Below the pieces are notes generated by a model, which saw only the letters and a program-made list of their open reading frames with translations, was not told where the DNA came from and searched no databases. The position numbers and the translations under genes were made by a program. From positions 2,852,001 through 2,916,000 of the forward strand of contig JAYWIR010000002.1 of assembly GCA_036172245.1 (NCBI GenBank): a DNA stretch of 64,000 nt, written 5' to 3'. How positions within the stretch are numbered: position 1 is the stretch's first letter; every line of letters begins with the position of its first letter. This DNA is from Raillietiella orientalis. Taxonomy: Eukaryota. Shown here one piece after another: positions 2,218 through 62,345 of this stretch.

Positions 2218-5200
2218 GTGTCTCCCCCTGTTTTCCATGAAAAAATAAGATCGAATCCAGAAAATATTGCACTTCACGAAACTTGAGTAGCAGCAGTAAT
2301 GCTAATCTATGATCAAGCCTTAAAATACTATAATTAATGGGTTACCAGTGTAGTTATTCACTGTATTGGCAATGAATTTTTGCCACCAAGACTTGAGAGG
2401 AGCAAACACTATTTCAGTCACTGCTTGCATATGAAAATATAATATATTTCAGTAAAAGCACTAATTTTTAATATTCGTCCTGGCAAGATTATTTGTGATA
2501 ATTAACAAGGTTAGGTAACCCTGGATCAACATTTAGCTTATCAGGGAGGTACATGAATCAGCCCACTGGGGTGTATTGTGAGAAGCTTGAAACACACATA
2601 AAATTATTAAAACAAAACAGAAGTTATTAATTACTTAAGCTTGCTGAATAATTGTTGGGAGATATTGAGTGATTGATTAAGTACTCAAGCACCTTTGATA
2701 CTCAGTATAAGTAAGCATTTCGTACTTTAGCAACCAAACTGAAAGATTTGAAAAAGCATATGCTTATAAAGGTGCGTACACGAAAAGTTGTTGCTACCAA
2801 ATCTAGCAGTGGGTGTGGTGATGTGATGTGTTAGATGTATCAAGCTTGTAATTTTTTTTAATTTCACAATACTATTTTTTGCTCTCATGAACAAAAGGAT
2901 TGTTACAGCAATGCAAATGGCACAAGCTGAAAAGTGAATGTCTAAAATTTGTGTTTTACGAAAGTTTTTCAAATTGATACTTCATAATTTTCGTTCGTTC
3001 TAAATTTCGTTTGCTCCTAGCGACCGGAATACAAGGTTTGACAGCACAGAAAACTCGACAGCTTAGTAGTTTCTCCGTTCCTTCTCTTAAGTAGTCATGG
3101 ATCCTCTTTTCCCCTGGCTTCAGGTCGACATTTACTGTGTTCCTTGTTTGTTCCCACCATCATGATTTCATCCTCTTCCTCTTAGCGCGCGAGTATCCTT
3201 GCTGCGACCTACCCATTTCATGTCAGCACTCTTCATTTTTGCTTTTCTTCCCTTACAGCATCATAAGATGCGAGTCCTATTGCAGCTTCCTCCTTCTCCT
3301 TCCACAGAGAAGAGAGGGAAGAGAGCCCCCGGCACGAGCGCATCCGGTCTTCCAGGAGGAGTCCTGGAACGGACTCCTGGAGACAATTGCCAGCTAGTGT
3401 GTTCCATGGCTGCCACGGGAACTCTTCAAGAGAAGAGGACGCGAACGATGGAGTGCTTCGATAGTCACGTCCTCGGATGTGGCTCTTGCGTCCGGAGGCT
3501 AGTGAAGGTCACACTCATTTGAGCCCTCTCGCTACCGCGCTCCCAGCCTGCATGCTTCGGGCGGTTCCCTGGAGAGGCTTTCTTGTCTTTTCTCTGATCT
3601 TCCTCTCCCTCTCCTCCTGCCCTAGTAGTTCGACTCGGTGGGAACTGTGGAGGCAGTGCTGATTCGTGGGTGTTCCTTAAGGAGGGGAAGAGCGCTCGCG
3701 CGCACTGTTGCGGTGACCGACTCCCTCGCTTTCGGCTAGGCCGTCCTAGCCTTTGCATGTCTCCTTCCCAAGCAGGCGCAGAGGAGACTAGCTTGGACGC
3801 GTTCGGGGTGCTCACGTCCTTCTCGTCTCCTCGTCTCTCGCGCAGCCGCGAGACAATCAGTCGGGGGACCTCAGGGATGCCCCCTGGACGCTTGCTCTTC
3901 TCCTTCGTGAGAGCATCGACAGGGCGGCCACTAGCGATCTTCTGTCTTGCCTTACAACCTCCTTCGCCCTCTGCGTCTCTCGTCCTTCAGTTTCCTTCAG
4001 CAGTCAGCCGAGGGGATTCGGAAACCCCACTGCCCGTTGCGTGCCGACCCACCCTGCACAGGAGGACCCACCGGCTCCAGCGCGCCTCCTTCGGGGGCTA
4101 GGAAGCGAATTCGCCGCCGAACTTGTCGCTGAGCCTCTTTCTTCCCTTTTTTTTTTTTTATTTTATTTTTCCTCATCCGAATCCCCTGATGTGTGCACTG
4201 ATCTTCTGGTCCACGGATGGAGCACCAAGCCTCCTTGAGAATACATACACTCCAGGGAGAGCGAAGGGAGTGGAGATGGACGAAACCTGGAGGGGAGAGG
4301 GAAAGGTATCCCCACCCTAGAGCGAGGCGAACTTCCGCAGTCGGCTCCCTCTTGGAACGATCTCGGGAAGCACCTTAGAGGGACTCTAGCAGGCGGAGAC
4401 GCTGGACCTCCATGGTAGCATCCCCTCGGGTTTCCTTCTCTGGCTGCAGACCTCGTCGAAAAGGTGGACGGTAGCTCGCCTCGCCTCCCCTACTCGCCCG
4501 CATCCCACGGTCCAGTGATCTGGTGAGAGTGGGTGCGCTTCCTCCGGACTGCAGGTCGTGGAGCAGGAAGGGAGGCAGGGGAGCGAAATGCGAAGGTACC
4601 GGCGATACGATCCCCCCGCGCGCGCGTAACGCGGGGGCCACCAAGGGAAAGTGCCGGCTCGCAGGGTGTGTCTCGCTGGGAGGAGGGAAGCGGATCTTGA
4701 GCCTCGACCATCTTCTCCAAAGAAGAAAAGAGGGATGAAGCTGAACGGGAATCGGGAAGGAGGGAAGGTTCAAGGAGCTCGGCGCGCGCCCTTTTCGGGG
4801 TACCTCCCACGAGATCTGCGGCTCTTCCCCGAAACGGCTGCATTTTTCCCCTGGCTGCTTCAGCTGCAGGAGGAAGCTGGAGGTCCTCGGGAGTGGAATT
4901 TCTCCCCTCCCCCTCTCCGCATGCTCTCCTTGAAGATCCATCGTCCTTCTGCAGTCAGCCTTCCTGTGTTCCTTCCGGCGGAGAGGAGGCGAAGGAAGTG
5001 TCGGAGGCGAATGCGTGGCTGTCCAGTGTAGTCCAAGAGAACGGGGAGACGAAGAGGCGAGGTTGTAAGGGCCTGCTGGTAGTATTTCAGTGGGAAACAG
5101 GAGTGAGGGAAGGAGGGAGAGACTATAACTTGCAGGTTGCACCATCCGCTCTCCCTCCTCCGCTGTCGTTGGATATCCTTCCGCCTTCGGAGGGTCTGCA

Positions 5201-5455
5201 GTGCCCTCGGAACAGGATGCGACCCAGGAGGCGGCATGTTCGCTTCTAATGTCGCCGCTGATTTGATCCTTTGTCTCCACAGCGTGACGGCCTTCCGGGG
5301 GAAGCGGGAAGAGGAGCATGGGGGAAGTGGGAAGAGGAGCATTAAAACTTTAAGGCCGGGGGGAGGGGTGACCCAAGCCATTCCCTGAAAAAGAGAGAGG
5401 AGGAAGGGGTCCAGGGTGTGCCCAAATGGCACTTTGCCTTCCTCTTCCTCTCCTC

Positions 5456-8400
5456 TCACGGCAGGTAACCTAGGGCGTCCTGGATGTTGGCGACGGAGAA
5501 CAAGCTCTTCCCGGGCTGTCCCCGCGGCGCGGCGCCGGCCAGACTCGCGTCTTCCTCGGAGACCTCGGCAAGAGAGTCCAGGAGGTCCGTCGTCTGAGAT
5601 ATCCTCATCCCGGCAAAGAGGGCCGCGATCTCGGCGTCCTTCTTGGCGGAGAGGGCCCCTCCTCCCCGACCACCCCCTACACCTCCCTGGTCCCTTGAAC
5701 TCGTCTGGGCAGGGCAGGCGAAGCGGTACAGCAGGTTCCCATCCCTGTCCTTCGCCGACACCCTCAGGATCTTCGCGCCTCGAGGAGTCCTTCCCTGTAG
5801 GTCGCTGCCTCCATCCCCGTCTGGGCAGTAAGGCAGCGGCGACTCCGGAGAGTTTCCGCCCTCTTCCTGCTCTTTCTCCTCTGCAGCCTCTGCCTCCTCC
5901 CCGTCCCCGTTCAGGCGCCTCAGCTCCTCGGCATCTTTCAGGTATGTCTCCGCCCTGGTTGTCAAGGTCGCCCTCCCGGAGCGATCCCCGCGTCGTGAGG
6001 GCGACCTCCGGAGGCGACTGCTCGAACGCCTTCGGACCCCGCCCCCGGAGGGACACTCGTCGCTTCCTGTGGTGTTGGTGGTGGTGGTGATCCCGGCGGC
6101 GGACCCAGAGGAGGAGTCCAGGTTGACTTCGTAGATGCAGACTCCGCGTGAGCGGATGGTTCTCAGTGAGCAACAGCAGCGCTCGCTCTCGGCGCAGCTA
6201 CCGGAGCCATCGCAGCTGCAGGGATCGGCAAGGGTGGGAGACTGCGGTCCACTGTCAACGCCGCGCCCTTCCTTCCGGATGGCCTCCAGGAGGAGGGCCG
6301 CTTCGCTGCCGTCCGGAGTGCGCCTCCGGGGGTGGAAGGATGCGGGCAGAGGCACGCGACGGGGGTCCTCCGCTCGCTCTCCCGCGGGAGGGCGCTTTCG
6401 TCTCGCCCGCATCTTGCGGCAGGCCCGAACCACGGACTTGGTCTTGCGGATGAGGTCGGCGAAGCCTCCGGGAGGGGTGCGCCGATCGGTGGAGGCAGTG
6501 GTCCGGGAAGATGCTCGCGGAGGCCTCCGCCGCCGGCGTTCCTCCCCGGAGTCTCCTCGAGAGAGGGCCTCGCCGCACCGGAAGGCATCCTCCCGGTCCA
6601 TGTTCGAGGCCAGCCGCAGAAGGATCTCCCGGTGGGCGGGGCGCATCCTGGTGAAAGAAGCCCCGTCGGTCCGCAGGATGCTGCGGAGAACGCGCCGCGC
6701 GGAGGCGCCTGCGTTCCACCCGTCCTCGTCGGAGGTGACGCCGCCGCCGGCGCCGGCCTCCTTGGAGGTTCTCGCCTGCGCCTCCGAGACAGGGGAGGAG
6801 CCGTATTGGTCCCGGGACGCTCCCGGACCCGAGGATGAGCAAGTGGAAGACCACTCGCAGGACGAGGGGGGGGCGAGCATCCTTTCGGTGCCCCAGGGTA
6901 GAGGGGTAGGGGTGGAGAATGGGATCCGGTCGTTGGCTACCAGCACACCTTCGCTGTGGTACCTGCGGATGGAGGCGGCGGGGCAGCAGCGGCGGCGGCG
7001 GCCTCCATCTGTGGGCGCTGGCGGCGACGGGCGCGGGGAAGAGGCCGCTGCCATCCTCGCCGCCTCCTCCTTCTCCTCCTCCTTCTCTTCTCTCCCTCTC
7101 TTCTCTTGCCTGGGAGGCCTCCCCTTCCTCCTCGCCGGCCGGACGGGAGCCAAGTCCGGGTCTGACCAGGGACGGGGGGAGCAGCAGCTTCCTTCCCTCG
7201 GGGGCGGCGCGAGGGCACCTCCGCCCCCGCTGGCTTCAATGCCCTCCAGTAGGACCTGGTAGAGGTTGGCGGCCATGACGATGGAGTCCTCGGGGCTGGC
7301 GCACACCAACGCGCGGCAACGGCAGCGCCCGGAGGTGGCGCTCCTGGCGACATAGACAAAGATGGGCGGGTGGAAGGGATGCAGGGCACTCCGGCCATCC
7401 TCGCGCAGAGTGCGGAAGAGGCGGAAGCGCTCCCGGCTCTCCGGGTCGCAGATCAGCGGCAGGAATGCGTAGCGCAGCTCTCCCGATGACGACGACGACG
7501 GCGAAGAAGACGATGAGGCAGCGGCAGTGGTGGTGGCTCTGGCGGTGGCTGCTGTGGGAAAGGGAAAAGAGCGGGCGCCTCCTTCCGTCCCCTCTCCAGC
7601 CTGGTCCTGAGGGTGACGGCGACGAGGATGGATCTCTCGAACGACGAGCTTCACAGCCGCCCACACCGCGATGGTCTGGAAGTGGTCGAAGACCTGCCCA
7701 TCGCGGTGCCTGACGAAGAGCCCGCGTGCCGCGATCTCTAGAGTGTCCCCCAGTGGGGAGACCTGCTGCTGCGCCTTCTGCCTTCGGGAGTCCGCCCCCG
7801 CCAGGTGGCCGAAGTAGAGCTCCTTCAGGGGCAACTGCAAGGAAGTCAGGCTGGGCGCGCGCGCTACCGCTGACGAGCCCAGGTAGCGCACCGCGTACCG
7901 CCTGCTCCGCCGGGGGGGAGGGACGAGGTCACCCGTGCTTTTCTCCTCCGTCCGAGGTCCTTCCGGAGGCGGCGGCGACGGTGGAGGCGACGGAGTTCCA
8001 GAGAGGGCTGCTATGGCTCCTGGAGGGGGAAAGTACTGCTGCTGCTGCTGCTGCTGCCATCCGCCCTTGGTAGTCCAAGAGCCTCCACGCCCGCAGGCGA
8101 GAGGGCTCGAAGGGTTTTCTTTCCGGACTCCGAGGGAGGAGACCCTCCGCACGAGGGAGAACGACGACCTCTCCTGGACTCCTTCGGCGATGCACCGGAT
8201 GCGCTCCTGCAGGCGGTTCCGGAAACTCTCATCGGCGCCGCAGAAGGAGGGGGAGGAGGAGGAGGAGGAGGAAGAGGAGGGGGGCACGTGACTCGTCGCC
8301 GGGCAGCGCCGCTCCCGGACCCACTGCGACTGCTGCTCCTCTCCTGAGTCCCGAAGGGGCAGGCGGCGGTGGTCTGGGCGTGGGAAGGCGCGCTCCTCGG

Positions 8401-8479
8401 GTTCGGGGAAGACGAACGCCCCGAAGGACGACGGAGGCGCCTGCTGCTGCTGCTGCTGCTGCTGCTGCGCGCACAGCAT
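5456..8479 (-). CDS. Intronless 1007-aa protein with a PTB/PID-like domain, low-complexity linkers and a C-terminal ...NIQDALGYLP
   Basis: Longest ORF in the window, with an in-frame TAG shortly upstream of the ATG. PTB-like start YAVRYLGS, strand LEIAARGLFV, FQTIAVWAAVK, and PTB-like end CRALVCASPEDSIVMAANLYQVL. Ordered blocks are separated by polyQ/S/P/E tracts. Confidence 0.75.
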   Translation of the reverse strand: MLCAQQQQQQQQQAPPSSFGAFVFPEPEERAFPRPDHRRLPLRDSGEEQQSQWVRERRCPATSHVPPSSSSSSSSSPSFCGADESFRNRLQERIRCIAEGVQERSSFSLVRRVSSLGVRKENPSSPLACGRGGSWTTKGGWQQQQQQQYFPPPGAIAALSGTPSPPPSPPPPEGPRTEEKSTGDLVPPPRRSRRYAVRYLGSSAVARAPSLTSLQLPLKELYFGHLAGADSRRQKAQQQVSPLGDTLEIAARGLFVRHRDGQVFDHFQTIAVWAAVKLVVREIHPRRRHPQDQAGEGTEGGARSFPFPTAATARATTTAAASSSSSPSSSSSGELRYAFLPLICDPESRERFRLFRTLREDGRSALHPFHPPIFVYVARSATSGRCRCRALVCASPEDSIVMAANLYQVLLEGIEASGGGGALAPPPREGSCCSPRPWSDPDLAPVRPARRKGRPPRQEKRGREEKEEEKEEAARMAAASSPRPSPPAPTDGGRRRRCCPAASIRRYHSEGVLVANDRIPFSTPTPLPWGTERMLAPPSSCEWSSTCSSSGPGASRDQYGSSPVSEAQARTSKEAGAGGGVTSDEDGWNAGASARRVLRSILRTDGASFTRMRPAHREILLRLASNMDREDAFRCGEALSRGDSGEERRRRRPPRASSRTTASTDRRTPPGGFADLIRKTKSVVRACRKMRARRKRPPAGERAEDPRRVPLPASFHPRRRTPDGSEAALLLEAIRKEGRGVDSGPQSPTLADPCSCDGSGSCAESERCCCSLRTIRSRGVCIYEVNLDSSSGSAAGITTTTNTTGSDECPSGGGVRRRSSSRLRRSPSRRGDRSGRATLTTRAETYLKDAEELRRLNGDGEEAEAAEEKEQEEGGNSPESPLPYCPDGDGGSDLQGRTPRGAKILRVSAKDRDGNLLYRFACPAQTSSRDQGGVGGGRGGGALSAKKDAEIAALFAGMRISQTTDLLDSLAEVSEEDASLAGAAPRGQPGKSLFSVANIQDALGYLP
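8036..8056 (-). repeat. (CAG)7 coding polyQ tract
   Basis: Pure CTG x7 on the + strand, inside the PTB-like ORF. Confidence 0.95.
8441..8467 (-). repeat. (CAG)9 coding polyQ tract at the N-terminus of the PTB-like ORF
   Basis: Pure CTG x9 on the + strand; translates as MLCAQQQQQQQQQAPP. Confidence 0.95.
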
Positions 8480-11400
8480 GGGAGGCCTTGCTCCTCGTGG
8501 GGAATATGGGAGAAGAAGGGGCGGGTCTGCCTACCCCCCTCGTTGGGACCGTGGTTCCAACCGTCAGAATGGCGTGGCGGTCCGCAGGGACGGAGTAACT
8601 CGCGAGGGCGTGAGTCTCAAAGAAGCGGTGGGTCCAGGGAGGCTGGGGCCCCCGCTTACGGGCAGCCTGCACACGAAGCCGCTGCTCCTTCCTGGAAGGA
8701 GAGAAGGGGGGGAGGGATCGTGATGGCCGGAGGGGAGGTAGGGAGGAGAAAAGGAGAAGAAGGAAGCGCGTGCGCTCCCGGTCCTCATGCGCGTCGGCGT
8801 CTAGCGCTCTCCCGCCGCGAGGAACCTCCCGGAAGGCTACCGCCTCCCTCCTTGTGCAGGGGACGAGGGGATGGCGGCAATGTTCCCGAGGAGCTCTACG
8901 TGGGGCCGAAAGGGGCCCCTGCACTCCCCTGTCCCTGCCCTCTTTGAGAGCAGCGAGAGCTCCGGAACGCCCTACCCTCTGTGCACCCCAGCGGGACGGG
9001 TCTGTAGGGTTTCCCCCAGAGACCTTTCCGCAGGGGGGGCTAACCGTTTAAGGACATCTTTTTCCGCGTCGCGCAACCGACCCGTGGTGCGTGTTTCCCC
9101 ACTCCACTCCTCCCTTCCTCTCCTGACTCCCGAAGCCGTTTCCCGCAGTGCCTTCCCGCGTCATGCGTCCTTCTCTCTCTACGGGACTCCGATTCCCCTT
9201 TCCCGCCCTCGTGCGCCTCGCCCCTCCCCGTCGAGGTGCCAAGGGTGCTGGCAAACGCCCTCCTCTCCTTCCGCGCTCCTCCCTCAGAGGCGAAAGGGGA
9301 CTCGACCTTCCGCTAAAAGGGCGACCCCGCCGGGAGGCGATTGGCGACGTCGGAAGGGTCAGGGGCCAGAGGGATCGCCGCCACCCCCCGCCCTCCCTTC
9401 CCCTTCTTCCCCTGAAAAGAAGGCGAGGGTATACAGGAGAGCTCACTCACCGGTGTTTTCGGGGGGCGCAGCTTCTCGTCGTCGGGAGGGCGCGGACTCG
9501 GGCGCTCGCCGGGCGGTTCTGCTCGGCCTGGCGCGCGCGTGTCCATCCGAGCGCGCGCGCACCGTGCCCCGCGGGCACCCGAGAAGAAAGAGGGGGGGGG
9601 GAAAGGAGAGGAACAGTTCTTTTCCTCCTTCTCCTCCTCTCTGCGTGGGCCGTCGCGCGTCCGCGAATCCTCTTTGCCTTCTCCTTGCATTTTTTTTCGG
9701 TTCCCCTCCCCTTCCCGACCTCCGGCCGGCCCGTCTCAGTCCTGCCCTCAGGGCAGTCCTACCCGAGGGAGAAAGGAGGGGTGTGAGTCTGAAGCCCCCC
9801 CTTCCCTCCCTCGGGAGGATGCGAGCCTGGTGCTCCTCTCGTGTACTGCCGCGCGCGAAGGGAAGGTCTCCCCTCCCTCCCCGCCCGATCCCTTTTTTCC
9901 TCTGGCGCGCTGGTAGAGAGCAGCGGGAGGGACCTGAGCCCGATGCAGGCGGCTCCTTCCCACCGCCCGCATGCGAGGGCTGGGTGTCCTGTCCTGGGAA
10001 ACCGAAGGGTCCGTTCCCTCCCCCTTTCCTACCGCCCCCGCGAGCTCAGCCCATCTCCTAGTGGCCCTCCAGACGGGCTCAGGTCATCCCCCTCCTCCCT
10101 TCAGGAAGAGGGGTCGGAGCCCTGTCAGGGAGAAGAGGGAGCAAAGGCTCACTGCATGGGGAAAAGGGGCGAGATGGAGGAAGAACGGGGTGCTTCCCTG
10201 ATGGAGGAAGGCGAACGTCGCTCCCACGGCTCTTCTTTCCCCCTCCATCCATCCTCACGTGCCGGATGCTCCCGGTCCGGGGGCGCAGCTTGTGCTCGGC
10301 CCCTGCGGCACTTATTTCCCACCTCCCACCTCCTTCATCCCCCATGGACGTCAAAGATGTCGCGAGGCCACATGAGGGGGCCAGGAAAGACTGCATCCTG
10401 TCCCTGGGAGGAGCATGCTCGCTGGTGCGGACCCCCGAGAGCTCCTGGAAACTTCCGACAGGGGGAAGGGAGGCGGGAGGACTCCTTGCCCTCCCCATGC
10501 CACGCCCCTATTCCCTACCCCCTTGTCTCCGCCAGCCTCCGTCCATCACGGTTCCCGGAGATCCCGGAGAGAGGAGGATTCCTGGGGGCATCCCAGGGGG
10601 TAGGATCCGGGAAGGGCGGCGGGAGAACGCTCCCCTCTCCTGGTGCCACCTCCTTCCCATCCTTGCTTGCAGAGGATGGGTGAGGGTGCGTTCCTCCCGC
10701 CCTTGCCGCTTGCCTCCCGCACTTTCGAAGACCAGTGCCCGTGACCGCGGCCAGACGTTGCCTATGGCGATTTTCTGGATGCCGCTGAGGAGAGAGAGAG
10801 AGGGGGGGGACGGGGCGCGGTGGAATAGGGGGAGGGGGAAGGATGAGAAGAAGCTGGCACGGCGGCTCCGGGAGGGCAAAGGGCGCGCGCTCTCGCGAGG
10901 GATGGTGGCCGGAGCTCCGGAAGCGTGGCGACGCCCCCTCGGCTGCCTCCGTGATCAGCGGACCAGAACGTCCGTTGACATCCGGTGGAGACCGCCAGCA
11001 ACCACCAGGGCGAGGTGGCGGCGAGCAGCAGAGTCTGAACGCCGGTCGGCGAGGGAGGGAGCGTAAGATTCCCATCCGCGCTGCTCCCCCAGACTTCCTG
11101 CGAGGTCCCCCAGAGCGAAGGGGCACCGAAAGGAGGAGAGCGCGCCACCAGCGCCGCGCCCCGACGTAGGCTGGTGGCGGGTCGACGACGCCCTGTGTTG
11201 TGCCCTTCCTTTCGTACTCCCCCCCCCAACCCCCCTCTTCCCCCGTGGAAACCTCCTTAGAAGGCACGCAGGCGAGGAGGTGAGGGGGAACGAGGGATCA
11301 AGCCGATGCTGCGGATCGGAGGCAGCCAGGAGTGCAGCGGTAGCTGCGAGACCCACGGGTTGGCCCAGCGGAAGCAGGAAGCGTTAATTTAATACTCGTC

Positions 11401-13092
11401 CGGGAGAGGACAGGCGTGTCTTTCAAAACATTCGTAAATCACGCGCAACGGAACGCAACAATGCGATGGTGTGGGGGTTGGGAGGAGGAGGGACGGAGAT
11501 TAGAGACTGGTAAGGGAGTGCAACGGAGCTGTCGGGGTTCGCAGAGTCCAGGGACAAACCCACGGCTGTTCCCCTGGAGGGGTACCTGGCGCATCCCCCT
11601 TTCTTCTCTCCGACTGTGGATCCCCTTTTTTTCTCGATTTCACACCGGGGGGCAGACTTTGACAAAAAAAAAACGCTTATACGGTCGTGAGTAAACAGGA
11701 TTACCACCCTCGCAGGTTGAGATGCACATTCTTAATGGAATGGAAACCAATCCAATGCGAATGGCAAACAAGTCCCGAACGTCCAAGGGCGAGGTCTCCT
11801 CTCAGGTGCCACGCTGATGAACGCCTAACTCGCAAAGTTCAAAAGCACGATGCGAGCAGCCCAGCCAGCAATAGTGGTCACCGTATATGCATTTCCGTGC
11901 GTGTGCACGTTCCCAGTATTTCTGTTCCGATTGTTTTCTCCTTTACCATTGCATTGGTGTTCATGAATGTTTCTGTTATTCTCTCTAGAGTAAGTTGAAG
12001 AAGCCTTTTCTGTTCCAAAAGACAGCTGTTACTAATTGCTATCTACGTGATGCTGGAATATTTGAAATAGAAAGCCCACCTTTCCCCTTCCCTACTATAA
12101 TAAAATTATGTGGACCTGAAGAATTTCCAACTTTTCAAACTTCCCACAATTTCCAAGTTTCAAAGGCTTCATAAGCGCAGACAAGTACTTGAGATGAGAA
12201 TCAAACCTCTGTTTGTTTTTTGTCTTTTCCTTCCTTTGCATCAGTTCATTTGTTTTTCCAGCTCACAAAAGCAATCGCTGAGCATGTTTAAGAACACCAT
12301 CCTCTTTTGCTTGCCCAAAATTTTTAATCAAGTTACCCTTAAATAAAGATTGGGTGGCATTTTCGGCACAAACAATGATTGACACTGATTCATAATTTGC
12401 GCTGATTTAAAGCATCATCATTCCCATGCTGTACTCAAAAAGGAACCTGCATTTCTAAACCCATCTTGAAACTATTGAGGGTAAATATTCATCTTTGTCA
12501 AGCACTCCAAATTGCTATCAGGAATCCTTTTCATCTCTGCCTTGCTATCATGCTCATCTATTCTTGTGCAAGAATTTGCATATTTAATATATTCCTATTT
12601 CCCAATTGTATTGATTTATTTGTGGATACTTGTAAGTCTACTAGGCGCTTGACATGAAATCGAACTGATGCTTCCGATACCCGTCCAATTTTGTGCAACA
12701 TCAGGGTTTGTGAGGTTTACCCAGGGGCGATTATCGCGGGTCGTAAACTTAAACGAATACCCAACTTGTAGAAAGGCAGTTAATCAAAGGTTTCTACAGG
12801 CCATCTTTGGTTGTTCCTCGAACTCGAACTTGTGAATCGTTTTCAGTGGAAAATTGTAATGAAATTTTCCATGAGATTTGTGGAAAGAATGAATTTTTCC
12901 GAAAAACATTTGTTTTCTTTGAGGGCTGTAGGATGCAATCTTGGACTCATGTTGACACCACGAAACACTGGAAAATCCAGGAGATAAACGTTTCTTCGGA
13001 TCTCGAAATCCTGCTTCATCGAGATCTTCGATATAGTATGATTATCACGATCTCAAAATGTCCATCTCCAAACGATCTCCATGCTAATACAA

Positions 13093-36951: not shown

Positions 36952-39480
36952 TTTATGCTTTTCCTATTTTATACTCGCATTAGTTTTGTTATATAAATGC
37001 TCAAAATTAATAATCATTTCTGCATTAACGGTCACCATAGAGATAATTTCGTTCCTAAAAAAAAATCACCTTCTTGAATAATAAAAAGAGCAACAAATAA
37101 AATATCAAAATATATTCATTCCTTTTCATTGAAGGATTCCAAAAACAATTTGAATGTGAATGAGTCTTTCGTAGGAATAGCTTTTTTTGTATTCAATAGA
37201 TCATTCTTGCTTCATATTTTCTGACATTATTATATATGTGATAAAAATATTCCCATATCGAGAGAGAATCTTTTTAATTACTATGGCTTTTATTAGTGTG
37301 ATACCATGGAATGATGGGAACCACTTAGTATGAAAGATGCAGCAATATAGGAAATCTAGTGGCTGAGTACCTCTGTAAAACATTTGGTAACCTAGACGCT
37401 TGCCTACTAAGTACTATTGGCTACCAATGGCTTTCTATCATTGCTTTGCCACTCAAGTGTACCAGTGATCTTGGGGAAAAAAATATAATTTGAACTTCTT
37501 GGGAACCCCGAGAGGAAGAAAAATGAACATCATTCTGCTTTATGCACTATTTTATCACAATTATAGCTTTTGCTCTATCTTCATTATGACTGAAGGCAGC
37601 CTGATTATAAACCATGATAAAGCGTACTCAATGAAAGCGCTTTTATAAGAGGATTAAAATGAAACTTTCGAGTTAAATTTCTAATTGTACACTCATTTCA
37701 TTACGTATTTTTTTCCGTATGTGTCTTATCAGATTAAAAAAAAGGGATGCGAAATTGTTGGTCGAATGTTATTGGAAATGCAGAAACCCTTTGCATGCAC
37801 CTTGCCAATGAAATTTTCTGCTGTATTATCGTCTTCAGTCATGGAAGCAGGACAATTTCTGATTGAATACACAGTGATATTCTTTGTTTTAATTCTACAG
37901 TCCCTCCTGAGTGCGAACCAATCTGTTGGTTATTCTGTTTGTGTGCCATTAATCTAAACGAGCCTGTAATTATGTTCATTATTCTTTTAAAATTCGCTTT
38001 AAAATAGTAGAATTGTAATTTGTTCTACATCTGCAACAGTAGGAAAACTTCATCTAAATTATCCCACCTTTTTTATTTCCTTTTTGATAAATAACGTTAT
38101 TTTTTTGTTCTCGAGAATTAATACCAGGAATTTATCGATATTACTATGTTTGTATTTTATAGGGACTAGAGAGTTTATTCTATTATCAGTTTTTATTCAA
38201 ATCTATTAGTTTAGAGTTTTGTCTAGCTATTTTTCAAACTAAATATAATATTAATACTAAAAATTCATTTCCAACGAAAATACACAGACGGCCGAAAAAT
38301 GATCATCTCCAAAATTTTCATGCAATCAAATCTGGATTGTTGAATTTAGAAAGATATTAGAATTGTGATTAGCAATAAGTAAGATACATACACAACATCT
38401 GTTTGTTTATCAGCATTTCAACTGTGACAGATTTGTCCACTTTCACGAAGTAACTGTAAACTTTTAGTTGTCGCTAAGAAAGTTTTGTGTGATCTTCAGT
38501 TTTGTTCCTTGATTTAATCGGTACATATGCTTTCTTCAATGATTCCTTATTAGGAAAACACTCCAAATAACTTACAAAAGCATTGAGGTTTTTCAAGCAA
38601 TAACATTAGTTGCAAACTTTCTTGTGACTTTTGAAAAAACTGGGACTTCTTTCAATATAAATGAAGTTAAATGAAATCTTGAAGTTTTTAGTTAAGGATG
38701 TGGTTCGGCTATAAGCAAATGATCTCTCAATAATTACGGTTTCTTATTTTAATGTGATAGGAAATAAATGCTCAGGATTGCAACATACAAATGTAGGAAT
38801 TTTTCAAAGTACTCTTCAAAATCATCAGTCTTTAAAGTCAGTGGACATTAAGGAATAATCAAGGGAACGTTAGATCTATTTTCAATTGCAGTAGGAGGAT
38901 TTAGGAAATACTAGTACTATTACTGGAATATAGGGTTACTTTCTATTGTTCTAACTACAGATGATTATCACTAGCATTACTAAAAATAAAACGTGTATAA
39001 ATTTCAAATAATGAAGCTGATTATGCTTTAACTTTGGTGCTACAAATCTTTTATCAAGTTGTACGGAAAAAATAATGAAATATGTTTAGTTCCATAATTT
39101 GAAAAGCTATTGACAATATGTATTTTATTCTTTGCCAATTTCGTGAAAAAAGCTTTCAGCTGTTAATATTTAAGGAACTGAATGATTGAGCAGAAAAGTT
39201 AGTTGTCTCTGTGACAAAGTTCACATTCAGTCATTATTCCCGATGTGGAAACTCTGTCCTTGTTTTTTTGAAATGCAAGTGTTCATGCAAGCGTTTGTGT
39301 TTGCGGTATAGAGTGTACTTTGTTTGTGTTGCGGTACGTTAAGAGCAATTCAACTTCAAGAGTCTTTAAGTAAAGTGTATATGGAAGTTGCTTGTTGGGC
39401 ATTGCGAGTCGAATTACTTCTCATGTAGATTACCAATTATTTTATTGCTTTCAGTTTTTATGCTGTTTGTTTCATGGTTA

Positions 39481-54660: not shown

Positions 54661-55830
54661 TTGCAACTACACTGCACACATCAGCTTCCCTTGTTTAAGT
54701 ACCCAAAAGTACGGAGAAAATGACCCAGGTACAAATCTAAATTCAAGTATAAAAATGGGAAGCTGATTTTCTCAACATGCGAATTTTGATTATTTGAGAA
54801 ATGAAGAAAGCAAATGATAATATATGTACAAATTTGTTAATGACTGTATCATTTACAGTGTGTATTAAGTTTAGACCAACTTTTTAAAAATACGCCTTTC
54901 TCTTTTATAAGTGATTATGTTTGATAATTCCTTAGTTTTTCCGATTTGGGTATAGTAAACAGAAGAGTTCATCAGATATACAATGCATATCAGTATTGTT
55001 AAATATTGTGGGAAATTCATGAGTGCCATCTTGTTATAATTTAGAAAGGGATTGGATGGATTGCTGAACAAATATTTACCGATTGAATGGTTAGGTGGTG
55101 CTTTTATTATTTCGTGGTAATTGTAATAATTTGAGAAGCTCTGTGTTTCAATTTTCCAAAGGAACGTGTATTTTGAATGCATATGTGGGTCTTGTAGGGA
55201 TCATGTTAGAAAGTATGGAAAGCAAGTCGACAGATGCGAAATCGAAAGAGACTTTCATCTTAGAATTGAATTTTCATCTTGATTCTATTATCTTTTCACA
55301 GTTCAATTTTCTCAAAAAGTTTTTTTTCTTTGCCAGTTTTCTTTTGTCTTTATTTTATTTTTTATATGTGTATTCTTATGGAAAAATATATGTATTTTTT
55401 TTTTATAAAATGAAGCTAGTAGAGAGTTGGTTATTTAGGATGTGTTTTCAATTGAATCTTGCATGATTGGAGAATATTGGAATAGTACAGATTTGATTTT
55501 TGAAAACTATTGTCAGCATAGACTGAACAATAAACTGGTTTACGTTTCTCACTTTGAGCTTACTTGAAGTTTAATTTATCTTTCAAATAAGTAAAGAGAA
55601 GAATCATATTGCAAAAACACATAGCATTTCAGAAAGCTTTTTTCTTTTTGCTGTTTCTCCTTGATTTTATTTGTTAATTGAGGAAATATAAGTTTTGTTT
55701 TTGTTAAAATCACTGACGTGTTCACTGATTCGTTAGTTCTATTAATATAATAACAAAAGAAATTTTGTTGATAAATGATTTTGTTGATTCAATGTTAACA
55801 ACATTCTTTCCATCAGAAAAAATTCAAATT

Positions 55831-58800
55831 ATGGATTCTGATGCAAAGCTAGTCACATCTTGTCTTCCAAATAAATGCATCTCTCACGGTGAAAATTTTG
55901 ATAAGATGATAATACCTTTTGCTGCTGGCAACACAAAAATACAAGAATTTGAACCCAAATCCAAATCGCAAGAATGTGTTTCATCTAAGAGTTCTGACAG
56001 GATAGTTGAATCTAATGATCTGGAAGATATCAGTTCAGATTCTAGTTCACCTCGTGTTACTTTTGGTGGTCCCAACCATGATGATTTAGAAAGCATTAGC
56101 TCAGGGTCACAAATTCCTGAAAGTGGTGATGTTGAAGGTAACAATCTAGATCAATGTTATGAAACGATTGATTCAGATGTCGAAATTGTTGAAAGTGATT
56201 CAGTAGTTAATAGCAGTGATAATGTGGTGCCAAAAAAATGTGTTTTGAAGGAAGATTTGTTTGAAGAGATAAATTCATCAGAAAGTGGTAATTTTGACAA
56301 AAGTGATGATTTCTCTGATTTTCACAGTGATAGTGAAATGGTGCTAACAAACAATTTGGTTACTTCTGATGCTTCTGGCTTTAAAAGTTCCTTTTTAGAG
56401 TCAAAGCAAGTTCAAAGAATGAATGATATTGCAAATTTAAATTCGATAAAAAGTGATGCATGTAAGCAACAGAGCAGCATTGTTAATTCCTTTTCTAATG
56501 ATAATCCAGTTAGTATAAATCAAAGTGGTCGTTGTGAACCTGAATATTTGGCAAATAAATGCAGTGCTTCTGGGTCACATGTTACATATTTAAGTGGCAA
56601 TTTAAAATGTCACAACAATAATTGGATCAGTGAAGACACTCTTTTAAATTCTAGAGGTGAAAGAATTCAGACGGAGAATGCTGCTCATGATAATTTACGC
56701 ATCTTTGATATCCTGGATGAAGCAGGAGAAAGTGAAGAGGAAAGGATGGATTTATCTGAACAAGATTTTGAACAGAGTTCCAGTGATTCAGATATTCCAC
56801 AGGATGAAATTGATGCAATGCTTGAAGAAGGTATTTTGTTTGGACGCCTGTGAATCATTTATATGTTTCCTTTAGAAATTTTAGTAATTCGTTTTAATGA
56901 GAAGTTGTAGCACCTGTTTTGTTGTATCTTTAATTTTTTATAATATCTGTTCTTATTAGTTCTTTTTGTACATTCTCTACTTTGATTACAAGGATTTACA
57001 AATTCTAATGGATAGAATTTTATAAGTATTGTTCTCTATGATTATAGACACTGTTCTGTGTTAATTGGTGTCATCTGACTTAAGGTCTAGAAGATGTCTC
57101 CCCTATTCCACTTAAGAGAAAACGAACTGCTGAAAAAAAGGATGAAGAATTTGAAACAGAAACTCCAGAACCATGTTACACAACTGAGAAAGTTGTGTTG
57201 ATAGGTTTGTGGGTAATGATGTTGTGTTCCATGCTTTAGCAATTCTCAGAGAAAGGCTGCACTCCTTTTGATATTTTGCCTGAAGGGTGGATTCAGGTAA
57301 CCCATAATAGTGGTATGCCAGTTTATTTGCATAAGAACTCCAGAGTGTGCACCCTAGCACGTCCTTATTTCCTTGGTACAGGAAGTACCAGAGTAAGGGT
57401 TTAAATCATTATTGCTATGTGATGATTCCATTTTTAGAAGCATAATGTGCCATTGAGTGCTATTCCCTGTCTACAATACATCCGGGAACTAGAAAAAGAA
57501 GCCAATATGTCTGCATCGTCAGTTGCATCAAACAGTGGTGAACAATCCGATTTGCATAATGGAAAACAAGATAGCAAAGCAGCAAAACTTGAACAAAACG
57601 GTTCATTTTCAGTAACTGAAACAAATGATTCGTTAGATAAAAAAAATTCAGCCAAAATGGAGCTTCCTCAAGTACCAGGTATGTTTAATGGATTGAAGAT
57701 TATTCATTGATATCATTGTAGTGGAAGTCAAGACTGCTGCTGATCATCAAGCTGAGTGCTCACTGTCACCAGAAGAAGTGCGTCAGTATTGCAAAAATAG
57801 ATTTGTGTTTCAGACATTGCATCTTCGTAAATTTAAGTAGGTAAAACTTCATTGCACTTAAGATTTATTGCCTTAGGTCATGGCTAGAGAGACGAAAGTT
57901 TTATAAAATGCGCGAGAGGAAAGAAAGAACAAAAACAGTTTCTTTTCCAGCAGATACAAAAATAATAACTTTACCAGGTAGGTTTTTTGGACTCTTGGTT
58001 CATTAGATAATTTTTCAGTAGTGTTGCAAAGTGGCAATGGCTCCTTAAGTGAGAAAAAGAATCGCAAATGGATTTTGAACCCCCGTGGAAAGAGTCATGT
58101 GTGCATTCTACATGAATATGTGCAGCGCACTCTCAAGTCCCAAGTTACATACTGCTTCAATTCTACACGTAAAGTAGACTGCTGAGGTGGTATATTATTT
58201 ATCCTGCAGAAAATCCTAGTAAACCATATGATGCTACCATCAAGATCAATGATATCAAATATGGGACAGGTATGGGTAGCAGCAAAAGAGAAGCCAAGGC
58301 AGTTGCTGCAAAAGCGTCTTTGGAAATCTTAATTCCAAATTATAAAGATATCTTGGGATCTGACAGTGAAAGTTCTCGAGGATGTGCTTCCACCAGTGAT
58401 CTTTCAGTAAGATCCTCAGAGCAGTATCCACTATTTGAGTTCTTTGTAGTTGTTTGATCAAATTGCCATTGAGGATGTTAGAGTTCCTGAACTCTGCATG
58501 AAGACCAGTGAACCACTTCCATACAATGTGCTAGTCACCTGTCTGCAGCGTAATTTCTGCCCTCATATTGCTGATATCAAGAAACACATTCATGTGGAGA
58601 TGCGCACATTGCGTCATCAAAAAAATGAGTTTATCATGACTGTAGGAAAACATACAGCACAAGTGATGTGCAAGAACAAGAAAGAAGGAAAGCAACTTGC
58701 AGCTCAAGCCATCTTACAGGCACTTCATCCTCATATTGATAACTGGGGATCTTTGTTGCGTCTGTATGGTAAAGAGTCAGTGTGCTGGGGTGGAGCCAAA

Positions 58801-59051
58801 CATTTGGATCGGGAGATCACCAGTCTTCAGAGTCAAGGATCAGCCGAAAGGGGACCAAACCATGTTATTCTTGCTAAACTGCGTGAAGAAATGCTGTGGA
58901 TTAAACAGATGAAGGTAATAGGAAACGTAACTTGAGATAATCATTGGTGTTTTAGAATTCTTGCCTACCCATTGGTCAGTTCACTCTTCCAGACAGCATC
59001 AGTTTACCTAGCACAGGTGGCATGAATTTAGACAATGTCGATATTCTGTAA
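55831..59051 (+). CDS. DGCR8: Microprocessor subunit DGCR8/pasha
   Basis: Acidic Ser-rich N-terminal exon ending [12 protein letters not shown]/Rhed region [51 protein letters not shown] with the haem-ligand Cys. dsRBD1 [13 protein letters not shown]...[12 protein letters not shown]. dsRBD2 [34 protein letters not shown]-terminus PIGQF...LDNVDIL, then TAA. Confidence 0.97.
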
Positions 59052-59054
59052 TTG

Positions 59055-60283
59055 ATGTCACCAAAGATGGATGGGTTGGGGGTGGGGATGCATTCCAATA
59101 AACTGATTTGCTTTCAGTTTTCTTTTTCAGTATTATTTAAATTGGGGGGGAGATATAAATGCCCATTAGGCTTCTTTCAGCCTTGCAAGAGACAGATCTC
59201 GTGGGGAAATATCGTAGCACATCAGGCTTCTTTTGTTCAGTGGATAGCAGAATCCATTCCTGTTCAAACATCTCAGCAGCTGCTTATTTTACTTCATGAT
59301 GTCACTGGTTTGTCGTGGTGGCAAACAATTGCCATCAGCACTCTTGTTATCAAAGGAGCCCTTAGTTTTCCTTTGAAGATTGGCCAGGTATTGAATTTTT
59401 TCGAATGTCTCTAAGATTCTGTAGAAACTGTTAATTTTTTTTTAGTTACGTGTTTTGTCCAGGTATCAGTCCTTATGCCATAAATGGCAACAAAAAATCC
59501 CACAGTTGAGAGATGAAACCATAAAAGCAGCAAAGCAATTTGGATGGGATGACAGAAAGTCAAAGAGACACTTTTTACTTGCTGTAAACAGTTTGGTTCT
59601 TGTTTTTGAGAATTGCGAAATTCCCATTTAGATGCAACAGCTTCGTCATCAAGACATTATTGAAAGTAATTGTCATCCTGCGAAAGCCAGTATTCTGATA
59701 ATGTTGCAAGTCCCAGCATGGGTAGCATTTTCCTTTTCACTTCGGAACTTAGCTAGTGGTCTTGGAGGATATGACACTTGGCTAGAAATGACCACTGGTG
59801 GAGCACTCTGGTTTGTTAATTTGGTAGAAGCAGATCACTTCTACATATTGCCAATATCAGTTGGCATTTTGAATTTACTTATTATAGAGGTCAGTAATTG
59901 CTAGAAGTTGATGTAGCAGTGAATGCTTTTAGATGGAACTCCTTAAGCTTAGAACATTATCAGAAGTGCCACGTCTTTATAAGCTTTTCATGTTTACGGG
60001 TCGCATTTTCTGTGTGGCAATTGCTGCATTTGCATCTGTTTGTCCAGTGGTACGTATTTTAATATTTTTTTGAATGTTTATCTAAAGTTTCCATTATTGG
60101 CAGTGCATTGTCTTGTTTTGGAACATTTCAACAGCTGTTGCATTATTTCAAAATGCATTGCTCGTGTTTCCAAATGTTCAGCATGCTTTTGGAATTAAGT
60201 TACAATCGGATTTCACCAATTCATATAGAAATGAGTTGAAAAATTTATGCACATCTATTCATAAGTTTAAATGGAAGCATTAA
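59055..60283 (+). CDS. COX18: Mitochondrial insertase COX18 (Oxa1/YidC family); 5' end unresolved
   Basis: LHDVTGLSWWQTIAISTLVIKGALSFPL, NCHPAKASILIMLQVPAWVAFSFSLRNLA, TGGALWFVNLVEADHFYILPISVGILNLLIIE, CIVLFWNIST...QN. Four GT-AG introns of 43-58 nt. Stop is TAA at 60281-60283. Confidence 0.93.
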
Positions 60284-62345
60284 TATTCCTTTTAAGAGTA
60301 GTGAATATAAATCTGGAGATTCTTAGTAACTGATGTGCTCAGTGTCATGGAAGGAATTAAGAAGTACCTTGATTTTTCATTTCCTAACATACTTAATTGT
60401 GTCCCATTGGCTGCTCAAGCACATGAATATGAAGCAATATTTTAGGAAATTTCTCTTGGTGGTTGCAAAATTGCAATTTTTTGGATTTTGATAATATCCT
60501 TCTATTTCCATAAGAAATGAATTGATTGTATTTTCAATTATTGCAAATATCGTATCAAATAAAACTTCTGAGGTTAATCATGTTGGTCTTTGTTAAACAT
60601 TCGCATGTTTTTGATGTTCAGTTATGTGGTCTCTGTCTATTGAAACATGGAAATATGTATGGATATGAGATCTTGGAGTCATCTCCAGGTACCAGCTTCC
60701 ACCAACTGTAGACACAGTTTACACTCCAATAAGTTAGTTTGCAAGGAGTTGGTTGTGCAAAAGAACTTATATAAAATGCATTTTGTTTGCCTGAGTATAG
60801 CAAAGAACCACAAAAATGATCTCTGATGTTTGCAGAGTTTGCTGAGATTTGTAAACACTGTCTCTTTGGTATACATGTGTAATGTTCTAGGCTTATAAAA
60901 TCATGAAGGTATTCTATGGTTGTGTTACCTAAAGGTATGCAGTATATGATAACAGTGAAAACCTAAGAATACCAACTGCAAAGAATTCACTTCAGATGTA
61001 AGGTTTATCTATAAATGCATCACTGCTATTGATAGCTGTTAGCACAACTGCAGTTTCAGTGGGAAACAAACTATGAAAAGTGGTCAAAAGTTTCCTGGTA
61101 ATTATCAGTTATGAAGAATTGAATTGTGAATTTTAGTTTTCATACCAAATGTTCTTATTGTAACTTGGTGTGAAATTCAGCAATTGACTTTCCATCTTAT
61201 GTTGATTGGGACACATCCTTCAGAAAAGCAAGCACCAAAGGCTTGGTGGTGTAGGCTTTCTGCTGCACTTTGCCTACTTGTGATGCGGTTGACTACCATT
61301 AATGTTCTGTACTACTGCAGCATTACAATTCAACACGTACTGATGACTGGTGCACTCCTGAATCCATGTGTTCGTACGTGTAGGTCAGTTTTGTGTGTGG
61401 AAAAGTGAAGCTACAGCATTTCATAGGGCACTGAGGCAGATTTTTCGAGATGATGAACTTTATTTATAGCTGCCATTCATATGTCAAGTTAAATCTTTCC
61501 TCATTATTGCGCGTATCTTTGTATTCCATATCTTAGCCGACTTAAGTCTTAACTTCAGTATGCCTATCTTATTGGCAAACTGAAATTTCAGTACTAAATT
61601 AGTTATATTAATATTACGTATACTTTAAACAAGACATGCGCAAGGTGATTTCATTACTTCTTCAGGAACGGAGAATTTTCTGCACAGGAAATGGAAGAAA
61701 TGGCACTTTGTGGATTCATTCTTAAAAATTTTGGTAGAATATTGAAATATGTATCTAAGCTAGTGATAAGAAAAAGAAATAAAGAATTCAAAGTATGTAC
61801 ATATCCTGTTTTTCTATGAATAACACTATTGCACTTGAATAAGGCAAAAGCGAACATTCGAATTTGAAAATTGAAAAGAAACCAAGAACCTCGAACGAAT
61901 CGGATCGAAGACGTAAATATTTGAAAGATAAGAACGATATGCCTTTTTTCTGTAGCAGAAAACCGTTTGATAAAAATTGGATGTAACTACTGGATGCTCG
62001 CGATCAATTTCAGGAATTTTATAAATGATGTAATGATTATTTCATAATTAGTGAAGTGCCAAATTCGAAAAAAGCATAAGCATGTAATTGGAAGAAGAGC
62101 TGAACATTCTGTGTGGCCAAGTGGATCATCAAGTGGCAACCAGAGTGAAAATTGGTTTTGGTGAGCTGACTGAGGTGACTTTGGTGAGTTCGTCGAAAAA
62201 AAGAACTCCCAACATGCAGGAAATGTCGAACCCTCGGAACTGAAGCATCAAAGCGTAGATGCTGAATGGAGCAAGGCTGATTTTCATCATCATCATGATA
62301 GATCCTGTAGACAGCAATCATACAAAAATTAAGGGAACTGACTTT

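Follow-up and report, generated by a model that had tools for sequence, protein, structure and literature searches.

Genes that follow each other on one strand with little or no space between them are already known. In the available part of a survey of Drosophila dicistronic and overlapping pairs (Crosby et al. 2015, PMC4528330), FlyBase is given as annotating 159 dicistronic pairs, or 2.5% of genes. The stop-to-start distance at polycistronic-only loci ranges from −34 to 319 nt, and 3' untranslated regions (UTRs) that overlap the 5' UTR of a downstream gene are described as too common to flag. A poly(A) site upstream or a promoter downstream gives rise to monocistronic RNAs at such pairs, and the downstream open reading frame (ORF) needs re-initiation, internal entry or a start site of its own (PMC4528330). 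The genes DGCR8 and COX18 of Raillietiella orientalis, located on a stretch of 64,000 nt (contig JAYWIR010000002.1, positions 2,852,001 to 2,916,000 of the forward strand; hereafter the window), are a further example, with an unusually neat double use of sequence. As in the Drosophila pairs, two unrelated protein genes lie on the same strand a few to tens of nucleotides apart. The locus differs from those pairs in that its downstream ORF contains a strong poly(A)-type signal, in that it does not come from a fly, and in that it is known from sequence alone. The names pasha, CG1800, CG4942 and Cox18 were not found in six supplementary files of the Drosophila paper (PMC4528330), a set that does not cover file 1.

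Two other kinds of system invite comparison. The operons of Ciona intestinalis and, in C. elegans, the rare SL1-dependent ones, according to the available part of PMC7986045, have a poly(A) signal that is followed after about 15–30 nt by a pyrimidine tract and CAG, and a gene spacing far below that of their neighbours. Both features recur here, but the start codon of those operons lies past the acceptor, whereas all in-frame ATGs of COX18 lie before it. Re-initiation of the TURBS type (termination upstream ribosome-binding site), as far as the available text of PMC10275272 describes it, resembles the present arrangement in starting about 3–36 nt from the upstream stop and in preferring AUG. 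It differs in relying on a structured upstream element complementary to rRNA, of which none was identified here, and cellular examples after long ORFs are poorly defined in that text.

The DGCR8/COX18 junction

Gene models were read by eye and checked by blastx and length computation. They yield the following features:

55816, plus strand: end of an acceptor-like site (TTCTTTCCATCAG), 14 nt upstream of the DGCR8 ATG 55831
55831..56853, plus strand: first coding exon of DGCR8, from ATG 55831 to ...AMLEEG before GT
58407–58449, plus strand: DGCR8 intron of 43 nt, splice sites read from the sequence
58450..58914, plus strand: penultimate exon of DGCR8, with the second dsRNA-binding domain and the start of the C-terminal tail; matched in PDB
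58915..58955, plus strand: last intron of DGCR8, 41 nt, GTAATA...TTTTAG, read from the sequence
58956..59051, plus strand: last exon of DGCR8, 31 codons plus TAA 59049–59051, from reading the frame
59055..59090, plus strand: candidate COX18 start codons ATG 59055, 59067 and 59088, all in frame
59088..59387, plus strand: COX18 exon 1 in the colinear reading, with presequence, conserved block from W 59241 and first membrane helix
59387/59388, plus strand: donor of COX18 exon 1, CAG/GTATTG, from reading the sequence
59446..59583, plus strand: COX18 exon 2, after a 58-nt intron, from blastx
59632..59889, plus strand: COX18 exon 3, after a 48-nt intron; most conserved exon, used as search query
59933..60049, plus strand: COX18 exon 4, after a 43-nt intron, from reading the sequence
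60104..60283, plus strand: COX18 exon 5, after a 54-nt intron, ending in TAA 60281–60283

The DGCR8 stop codon TAA (59049–59051) is followed directly, in the same frame, by TTG ATG TCA, and according to the ORF list this frame contains no stop across 59052–59414. Between the DGCR8 stop and the COX18 start lie 3, 15 or 36 nt, according to the ATG chosen, and both genes are on the plus strand. The original prediction had described the two genes as butted together with an in-frame continuation, and the observation itself is confirmed in both respects; the interpretation then given is partly supported. Frame identity between the two genes is unremarkable, because a shared frame has a chance of 1 in 3 and a stop triplet is followed by 12 stop-free codons in 47% of cases.

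Both gene names held up as well. In PDB, exon 58450–58914 matches human DGCR8 chains (6v5b_C, E 5.2e-32; 6lxd_B, 1.4e-31; 2yt4_A, 9.5e-29), residues 2–150 of the query aligning with residues 598–741 of the 773-residue human chain. Pfam finds a dsrm domain in the DGCR8 region at 58173–58457 (E 1.9e-8). The second dsrm, in exon 58450–58914, reaches 22.6 bits against a cut-off of 23 bits, and a WW match at 57240–57404 is weak (E 0.0025, below the cut-off). The predicted product has the DGCR8 domain order, a WW-type domain followed by two dsRNA-binding domains, with the WW part weak. No acceptor other than the one at 58955 preserves a frame ending at TAA 59049. With it, the tail past the last PDB-aligned residue is 36 residues long, against 32 in the 773-residue human chain; the 31 residues of the last exon alone have no match in PDB. 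This exon contains an ATG in frame at 59022, a TCGATA hexamer and two TCAGTT motifs (58976 and 58999). It also holds another strong acceptor, TTCACTCTTCCAG (58980–58992, ending at 58992). Splicing from donor 58914 to this acceptor would shorten the DGCR8 tail, which would then end at TGA 59023–59025, and would leave the overall picture unchanged. Introns are very short in this pair (43 and 41 nt in DGCR8; 58, 48, 43 and 54 nt in COX18).

Starting from ATG 59088, COX18 has 330 amino acids in five exons, and every intron is GT..AG. In a representative library, exon 59632–59889 matches 335 proteins at E <= 1e-3, the best at 2.5e-24. Among 30 of the 150 listed matches that were looked up, a source name was attached to 24 clusters, of which 18 were named COX18, two were YidC/Oxa/ALB-domain proteins and four had uninformative names. 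The COX18-named relatives span arthropods, vertebrates, a crinoid and a tardigrade. Single COX18 exons, submitted one at a time, gave no Pfam match, to 60KD_IMP or otherwise, at E <= 0.1; PF02096 is carried by 13 of 14 long COX18 homologues. Word-index protein searches with COX18 exon 1 and, in the longer mode, exon 3 returned no scoring match, nor was there a match in metagenome scans with the exon 3 protein and a 31-nt junction string. Two parasitoid-wasp models, P0001 (Phymastichus, 1243 amino acids) and P0002 (837-amino-acid representative of a cluster holding Trichogramma), contain two COX18-like halves each, as tandem duplicates of COX18 that annotation may have fused.

No fused DGCR8–COX18 gene model from another species is present among the proteins compared: none of the 14 long COX18-matching proteins has a DGCR8-type domain in Pfam, and blastx of 55700–59051 against the stored COX18-type matches and cluster members gave no match. 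A literature search for DGCR8 together with COX18 returned only papers that are unrelated by title and abstract.

The start of COX18 and the embedded poly(A)-type signal

The in-frame run after the DGCR8 stop is best read as COX18's own coding start, its putative coding status resting on openness, composition and length. Three ATGs could serve, 59055, 59067 and 59088, which occupy positions 2, 6 and 13 of the exon 1 frame. The best context is that of ATG 59067 (AAAG ATG G). All three candidate N-termini have a presequence-like composition, and the one from ATG 59088 is the cleanest: its first 35 residues include six K+R and no D+E, against means of 4.9 (standard deviation 1.5) and 1.2 (standard deviation 1.2) in 106 full-length-looking homologues. 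Past the two acceptor-like motifs at 59117 and 59130 the frame reads LFKLGGRYKCPLGFFQPCKRQIS, in agreement with the earlier description of a basic, acid-free run resembling a mitochondrial presequence and lacking a further Met in the exon. The N-termini of eight short, source-named homologues, placed by blastp coordinates, lie between positions −4 and 25 of the exon 1 frame; the eight come from two ticks, one of them Ixodes, and from a spider, a mite, a centipede, a tardigrade, a wasp and a snake. Of 85,844 random windows of 26 codons, 0.54% are open and have at least three in-frame ATGs.

Just before the conserved block, family columns were taken from 97 distinct anchored homologues. The residues that precede W 59241 in the frame of the three ATGs (frame 0) are S-F-V-Q, and the family columns are G/S, W/I/V/F, Y/F/L and K/E/Q. 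Over the last five residues before 59241 the mean BLOSUM score is 0.08 in frame 0 against −6.27 in a rival frame; over all 14 residues before 59241, the observed score is reached by 29 of 500 shuffles. Frame 0 fits the conserved columns, and coding therefore continues through the acceptor-like motif TTTTGTTCAG that is seen by eye to end at 59240.

These columns bear directly on an alternative in which translation of COX18 begins in another frame, at ATG 59159, and removal of a 40-nt intron, 59201–59240, restores frame 0. This ATG is the first after the acceptor-like motif at 59130 (28 nt on), an arrangement found at four other genes of the window (see below). Local codon usage gives its 14 codons a score of +4.4, compared with −3.0 in frame 0; the join keeps the frame, and the conserved block begins directly after TTTTGTTCAG. 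The upstream columns nevertheless fit frame 0 (0.08) and not the rival frame, which reads E-T-D-L (−6.27). The resulting N-terminus, MPIRLLSALQETDL, is unlike a presequence, with one basic and two acidic residues and a third acidic residue four positions into the WIAES block. It would place 14 residues before the conserved block, compared with a projected 39–40 in the shortest named homologue (P0082). Frame 0, moreover, is open for 63 codons upstream of 59241, for which the chance is about 2–3% by extrapolation. A start at ATG 59159 is extremely improbable, and the combination with the 40-nt intron was rejected because the conserved columns favour frame 0.

A strong poly(A) site consists of a hexamer, a U-rich element and a G-rich auxiliary element. 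The AATAAA reported in the original prediction does lie inside the open COX18 frame, and it belongs to a unit of this layout:

59097..59153, plus strand: poly(A)-site-like unit, with AATAAA at 59097–59102, a T-rich tract at 59108–59131 and a G-run at 59142–59153

In frame 0 the unit provides the codons for NKLICFQFSFSVLFKLGGR, and the T-rich tract, which contains a CAG ending at 59117 and another ending at 59130, also reads as Phe, Ser and Gln codons. Among the 53 AATAAA hexamers on the plus strand of the window beyond 12 kb, the one at 59097 ranks first for the most T-rich tract 10–39 nt downstream (60% T; median 33%). Within 58900–60800 the only other AATAAA is at 60558, 275 nt past the COX18 stop. 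Chance explains neither the poly(A)-type signal nor the start region. AATAAA 59097 and the T-rich tract would most simply be the DGCR8 poly(A) site, situated within the COX18 presequence. With a poly(A) signal of canonical appearance located in the COX18 frame, DGCR8 3'-end formation and COX18 expression would overlap physically.

In the minimum free energy fold, the T-tract 59119–59131 pairs with the G-run 59141–59153 in a 13-bp G-U-rich stem that would hide the 59130 site. The fold of 58990–59170 (181 nt) is not unusual (z −1.56; 14 of 200 shuffles are as stable), and the idea that this segment forms a Microprocessor hairpin was rejected at this z value.

COX18 is probably colinear with the genome and initiated at an ATG; that its RNA has a start site of its own inside the 3' end of DGCR8 is proposed tentatively. 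Built on the gene identities, exon structure, frame, motif positions and statistics given above, this explanation makes suggestions about the ATG used, the RNA start site, the use of the poly(A) site and re-initiation. DGCR8 and COX18 would form a tight same-strand pair with overlapping transcription units. The COX18 RNA would start at its own site within the last DGCR8 exon or intron, with the initiator-like TCAGTT motifs at 58976 and 58999 as candidates, and would be colinear with the genome up to donor 59387. Ribosomes would meet a nine-codon remnant of DGCR8 (ATG 59022 to TAA 59049) and re-initiate at the three in-frame AUGs; a short upstream ORF that ends 3–36 nt before three AUGs is favourable for re-initiation. 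Translation would begin at ATG 59088 or at ATG 59067 with its better context. The AATAAA, within about 120 nt of the cap, would be mostly bypassed in COX18 RNA. The T-rich tract would do two jobs, as the downstream element of the DGCR8 poly(A) site and as Phe/Ser-rich codons of the COX18 presequence, and the motifs at 59117 and 59130 would not be used as acceptors in productive mRNA.

TCAGT is the arthropod initiator core. It occurs four times within 160 nt (58976–59131), the only such window among 6,384 on the plus strand, with a Poisson expectation of 0.04. The four motifs can be read as initiator-like or as acceptor-like (CAG before T).

Several points weigh against the colinear explanation and its internal start site. 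The TCAGT cluster is ambiguous, since two of its four motifs are identical with the acceptor motifs and are found downstream of the ATGs, and it was noticed post hoc. A start in the last DGCR8 exon leaves the upstream ATGs 59022 and 59035 before those of COX18. A strong poly(A) signal 10–45 nt past the start codon should truncate some of the COX18 RNA. The frame-0 codon-usage score of 59118–59240 is −2.1, below all in-frame calibration windows (mean 10.4, standard deviation 4.8), while exceeding 92% of out-of-frame windows; a presequence is odd in composition, but the score is not positive evidence of coding. The N-terminal 50 residues of COX18 are no more similar to homologues than shuffled sequences are (30 of 200 reach the observed maximum). 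Finally, the COX18 ATGs lack the pre-ATG acceptor-like site that is present at all four other genes with a clear start. The 5' end of COX18 is formed differently from those of its neighbours, which fits a downstream cistron equally well. A supposed likeness to vertebrate N-termini was dropped, as the N-terminal 50 residues do not rise above shuffles, and an extension of a locust alignment to 59091 was not significant.

Such a downstream cistron would arise if transcription from the DGCR8 promoter ended either at AATAAA 59097, giving DGCR8 mRNA, or, after read-through, at 60558, giving a DGCR8–COX18 RNA. COX18 would then be made by termination–reinitiation at the AUGs 3, 15 and 36 nt past the TAA, or by internal entry, and the choice of poly(A) site would set the DGCR8:COX18 ratio. 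The gap of 3–36 nt lies within the Drosophila range of −34 to 319 nt (PMC4528330), and three in-frame AUGs right after the stop would catch re-initiating ribosomes. There is no AATAAA between 59097 and 60558, other neighbours in the window are spaced hundreds of bases to kilobases apart, and the absence from the COX18 ATGs of the acceptor-like site found at all four other genes also agrees with this explanation. The affinity of the window is in keeping with it as well: a single-gene tree of the neighbouring BMS1 gene groups the window with Pancrustacea (96/95), and an ESM Atlas lead also points to arthropods. On the other side, re-initiation after a long ORF is inefficient, and known viral cases depend on a structured element upstream and on a start no more than about 20–30 nt from the stop, according to the available part of PMC10275272. 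No structured upstream element was identified at the junction, where the fold of 58990–59170 has a z of −1.56. A strong poly(A)-type site would pass few transcripts, and no fused DGCR8–COX18 model was seen (14 long proteins by Pfam; blastx). Read-through is considered somewhat unlikely.

Acceptor-like motifs and splicing alternatives

The original prediction had placed two tandem acceptors at the 5' edge of COX18. The motifs exist, TTTCAG ending at 59117 and TTTTTCAG ending at 59130, and they equal the five real acceptors of the locus in quality; a branch-point-like CTGAT lies 24 nt before 59130. As the 5' edge of COX18 they are not supported, in that no in-frame ATG follows. The first ATG after either is 59159, which is out of frame and opens 46 codons, and exon 1 has no in-frame Met downstream. 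A pattern scan finds further acceptor-like motifs within exon 1, ending at 59180 and 59365. T-rich CAG motifs of this kind are readable as Phe/Ser/Gln codons and as a putative poly(A) downstream element, and are not diagnostic of splicing. Of the four routes of COX18 expression suggested earlier, a bicistronic or re-initiating mRNA and an internal promoter fit best; splicing from a distant exon and trans-splicing need a leader or exon ending in AUG at 59117.

Two repeated sequences were noted around these motifs. The heptamer GTGGGGA occurs only twice on the plus strand beyond 12 kb, at 59082 and 59201, both in COX18 exon 1 and 119 nt apart. Each copy is followed about 30 nt on by TTCAG, and they could be G-rich auxiliary elements or donors of mini-introns (36 and 40 nt). 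Just two copies of the 14-mer TTGCTTTCAGTTTT are present in the 64 kb, at 39445–39458 (the pre-ATG site of USP39) and at 59108–59121 (the first COX18 "acceptor"), and both lie about 12–13 nt downstream of CCAAT.

The likeness to SL1-type operons of C. elegans, also drawn in the original prediction, extends to the layout only. An acceptor motif is found at or just after the poly(A) site of the upstream gene, while the start codon that should follow it in a spliced-leader operon is out of frame (59159). In the corresponding model, a single pre-mRNA would be cleaved after AATAAA 59097 and a leader trans-spliced to COX18, either at 59117, which is in frame only with an AUG-ending leader, or at a weak upstream site such as AG 59065–59066. 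A broader argument for leaders comes from the other four genes of the window with a clear start, each of which has a strong acceptor-like site 5–26 nt before its ATG, with no ATG in between (acceptor end/ATG):

55816/55831, plus strand: DGCR8, distance 14 nt
39454/39460, plus strand: USP39, distance 5 nt
1139/1166, plus strand: HGH1, distance 26 nt
~33446/33432, minus strand: BMS1, distance 14 nt

The background for such sites ranges from 141 of 2,279 ATGs (6.2%) under the strictest definition to 22% under the loosest, the definition being post hoc. The pattern suggests leader trans-splicing or systematic 5'-UTR introns, and ordinary introns of the latter kind would explain it equally. The short distances match copepod 5' UTRs downstream of the leader, which measure 17 +/- 26 bp in one of two species for which the available part of PMC4664967 gives values. 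The 14-mer TTGCTTTCAGTTTT is common only to the USP39 pre-ATG site (39445) and 59108. At 15–28 nt after AATAAA the junction has CTGAT, a pyrimidine tract and CAG, the layout described for operons without an intercistronic region (PMC7986045, in part).

The BMS1 tree also places the window among non-insect pancrustaceans, a setting in which two crustacean groups use leaders. This maximum-likelihood tree of a single gene comprises the window and 27 named rows chosen from 120 listed matches; the window falls inside Pancrustacea (96/95), outside six insects (100/99) and, weakly, beside a barnacle (91/68). The underlying BMS1 exon (309 amino acids) is 62–68% identical to 119 of the 120 listed matches, from arthropods, molluscs, corals and vertebrates, so that none of the annotated sequences comes from a closely related animal. 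On the strength of this one gene tree the animal is taken to be a probable non-insect pancrustacean.

The start codon is the difficulty for trans-splicing: downstream of 59117 or 59130 there is no in-frame AUG, and ATGs 59055, 59067 and 59088 have no good acceptor upstream. Were an AUG-ending leader spliced on at 59118, the product would begin with MFSFSVLFKLGGRY... and have a good presequence. In flatworms, the 3'-terminal AUG of spliced leaders can serve as initiator. A leader of the flatworm type is, to our knowledge, the only known kind that would make a splice at 59117 productive, and its join there would be in frame. Unlike flatworms, however, the window groups with pancrustaceans in the BMS1 tree, and the cited crustacean leaders do not end in AUG: as far as the available parts of the sources go, the amphipod leader ends in ...ACTG (PMC5111886) and copepod leaders end in ...AAGAG, ...AAAAG and ...TCAAG (PMC4664967). 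Operons are unreported in amphipods and copepods in the available part of PMC7986045, and a literature search on crustacean operons gave no title on the subject among the papers listed. Rfam has no match in the whole window, where no leader RNA gene or family was found, and acceptor-like motifs also occur inside the coding exon. A spliced-leader operon is accordingly judged quite improbable.

Conventional splicing could also supply the AUG of COX18 from an upstream exon. This could be a COX18-specific 5' exon, a mini-exon 59067–59081 joined to 59118 across a 36-nt intron that holds the AATAAA, or DGCR8 itself, spliced from donor 58914 to 59118 to give an in-frame DGCR8–COX18 chimera. Sites 59117 and 59130 match the five real acceptors in quality, the frame is kept both from 59082 to 59117 and from 58914 to 59117, and the pairing of the rare GTGGGGA with a TTCAG about 30 nt on would suit such mini-introns. 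Many insect and shrimp COX18 proteins carry 80–140 extra N-terminal residues. An intron of 36 nt, by contrast, would be shorter than any real one here (41–58 nt), the GTGGGG donor differs from the local donors, all GTA or GTC, and none of the candidate donors tried can be joined to 59130 in frame. The in-frame ATGs already yield a protein of normal length, and a fusion of a nuclear RNA-binding protein with a mitochondrial insertase would be functionally senseless. A cis-spliced upstream exon is very improbable.

Implications and neighbourhood

If the two genes merely overlap tightly, the poly(A) signal, U-rich element and G-run would be written in the codons of a mitochondrial presequence. For annotation, the locus is a warning that predictors could fuse or truncate DGCR8 and COX18. 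A true two-gene expression unit in a non-insect pancrustacean, in which the choice at AATAAA 59097 decides between DGCR8 mRNA and COX18 RNA, is unlikely; its COX18 RNA would come about through read-through and re-initiation at the triple AUG, or through an AUG-supplying leader at 59117. Such a unit would couple the output of a microRNA-processing factor reciprocally to that of a complex IV assembly factor and, if it involved a leader, would be the first crustacean operon to be described. The link between microRNA biogenesis and complex IV assembly raised in the original prediction is a hypothesis that depends on transcripts spanning both genes; given such transcripts, the choice of the DGCR8 3' end would set COX18 output. 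Apart from COX18, the acceptor pattern before the ATGs of all four other genes is a lead that this little-sampled lineage may use leader trans-splicing. Should it do so, crustacean operons, so far unreported in the available part of PMC7986045, would become a live question.

The remaining genes of the window were named by Pfam and homology:

~1166–2088, plus strand: HGH1-like gene, DUF383/384
~16–23 kb, minus strand: huntingtin
27.6–33.4 kb, minus strand: BMS1
36.4 kb, minus strand: coiled-coil gene
39.4–41 kb, plus strand: USP39
41.5–43 kb, minus strand: gene with SAP and LAIKA domains

An 8-kb block at about 4000–12000 has a GC content of 61–69%, compared with 30–44% in the rest of the window. 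It contains an ORF of 1024 amino acids on the minus strand (5456–8530) with poly-Q and poly-S runs. In Pfam this ORF has no match at E <= 0.01; in the ESM Atlas, as a lead only, it is similar to arthropod FAM43A/PID_2 clusters (0.93 and 0.89).

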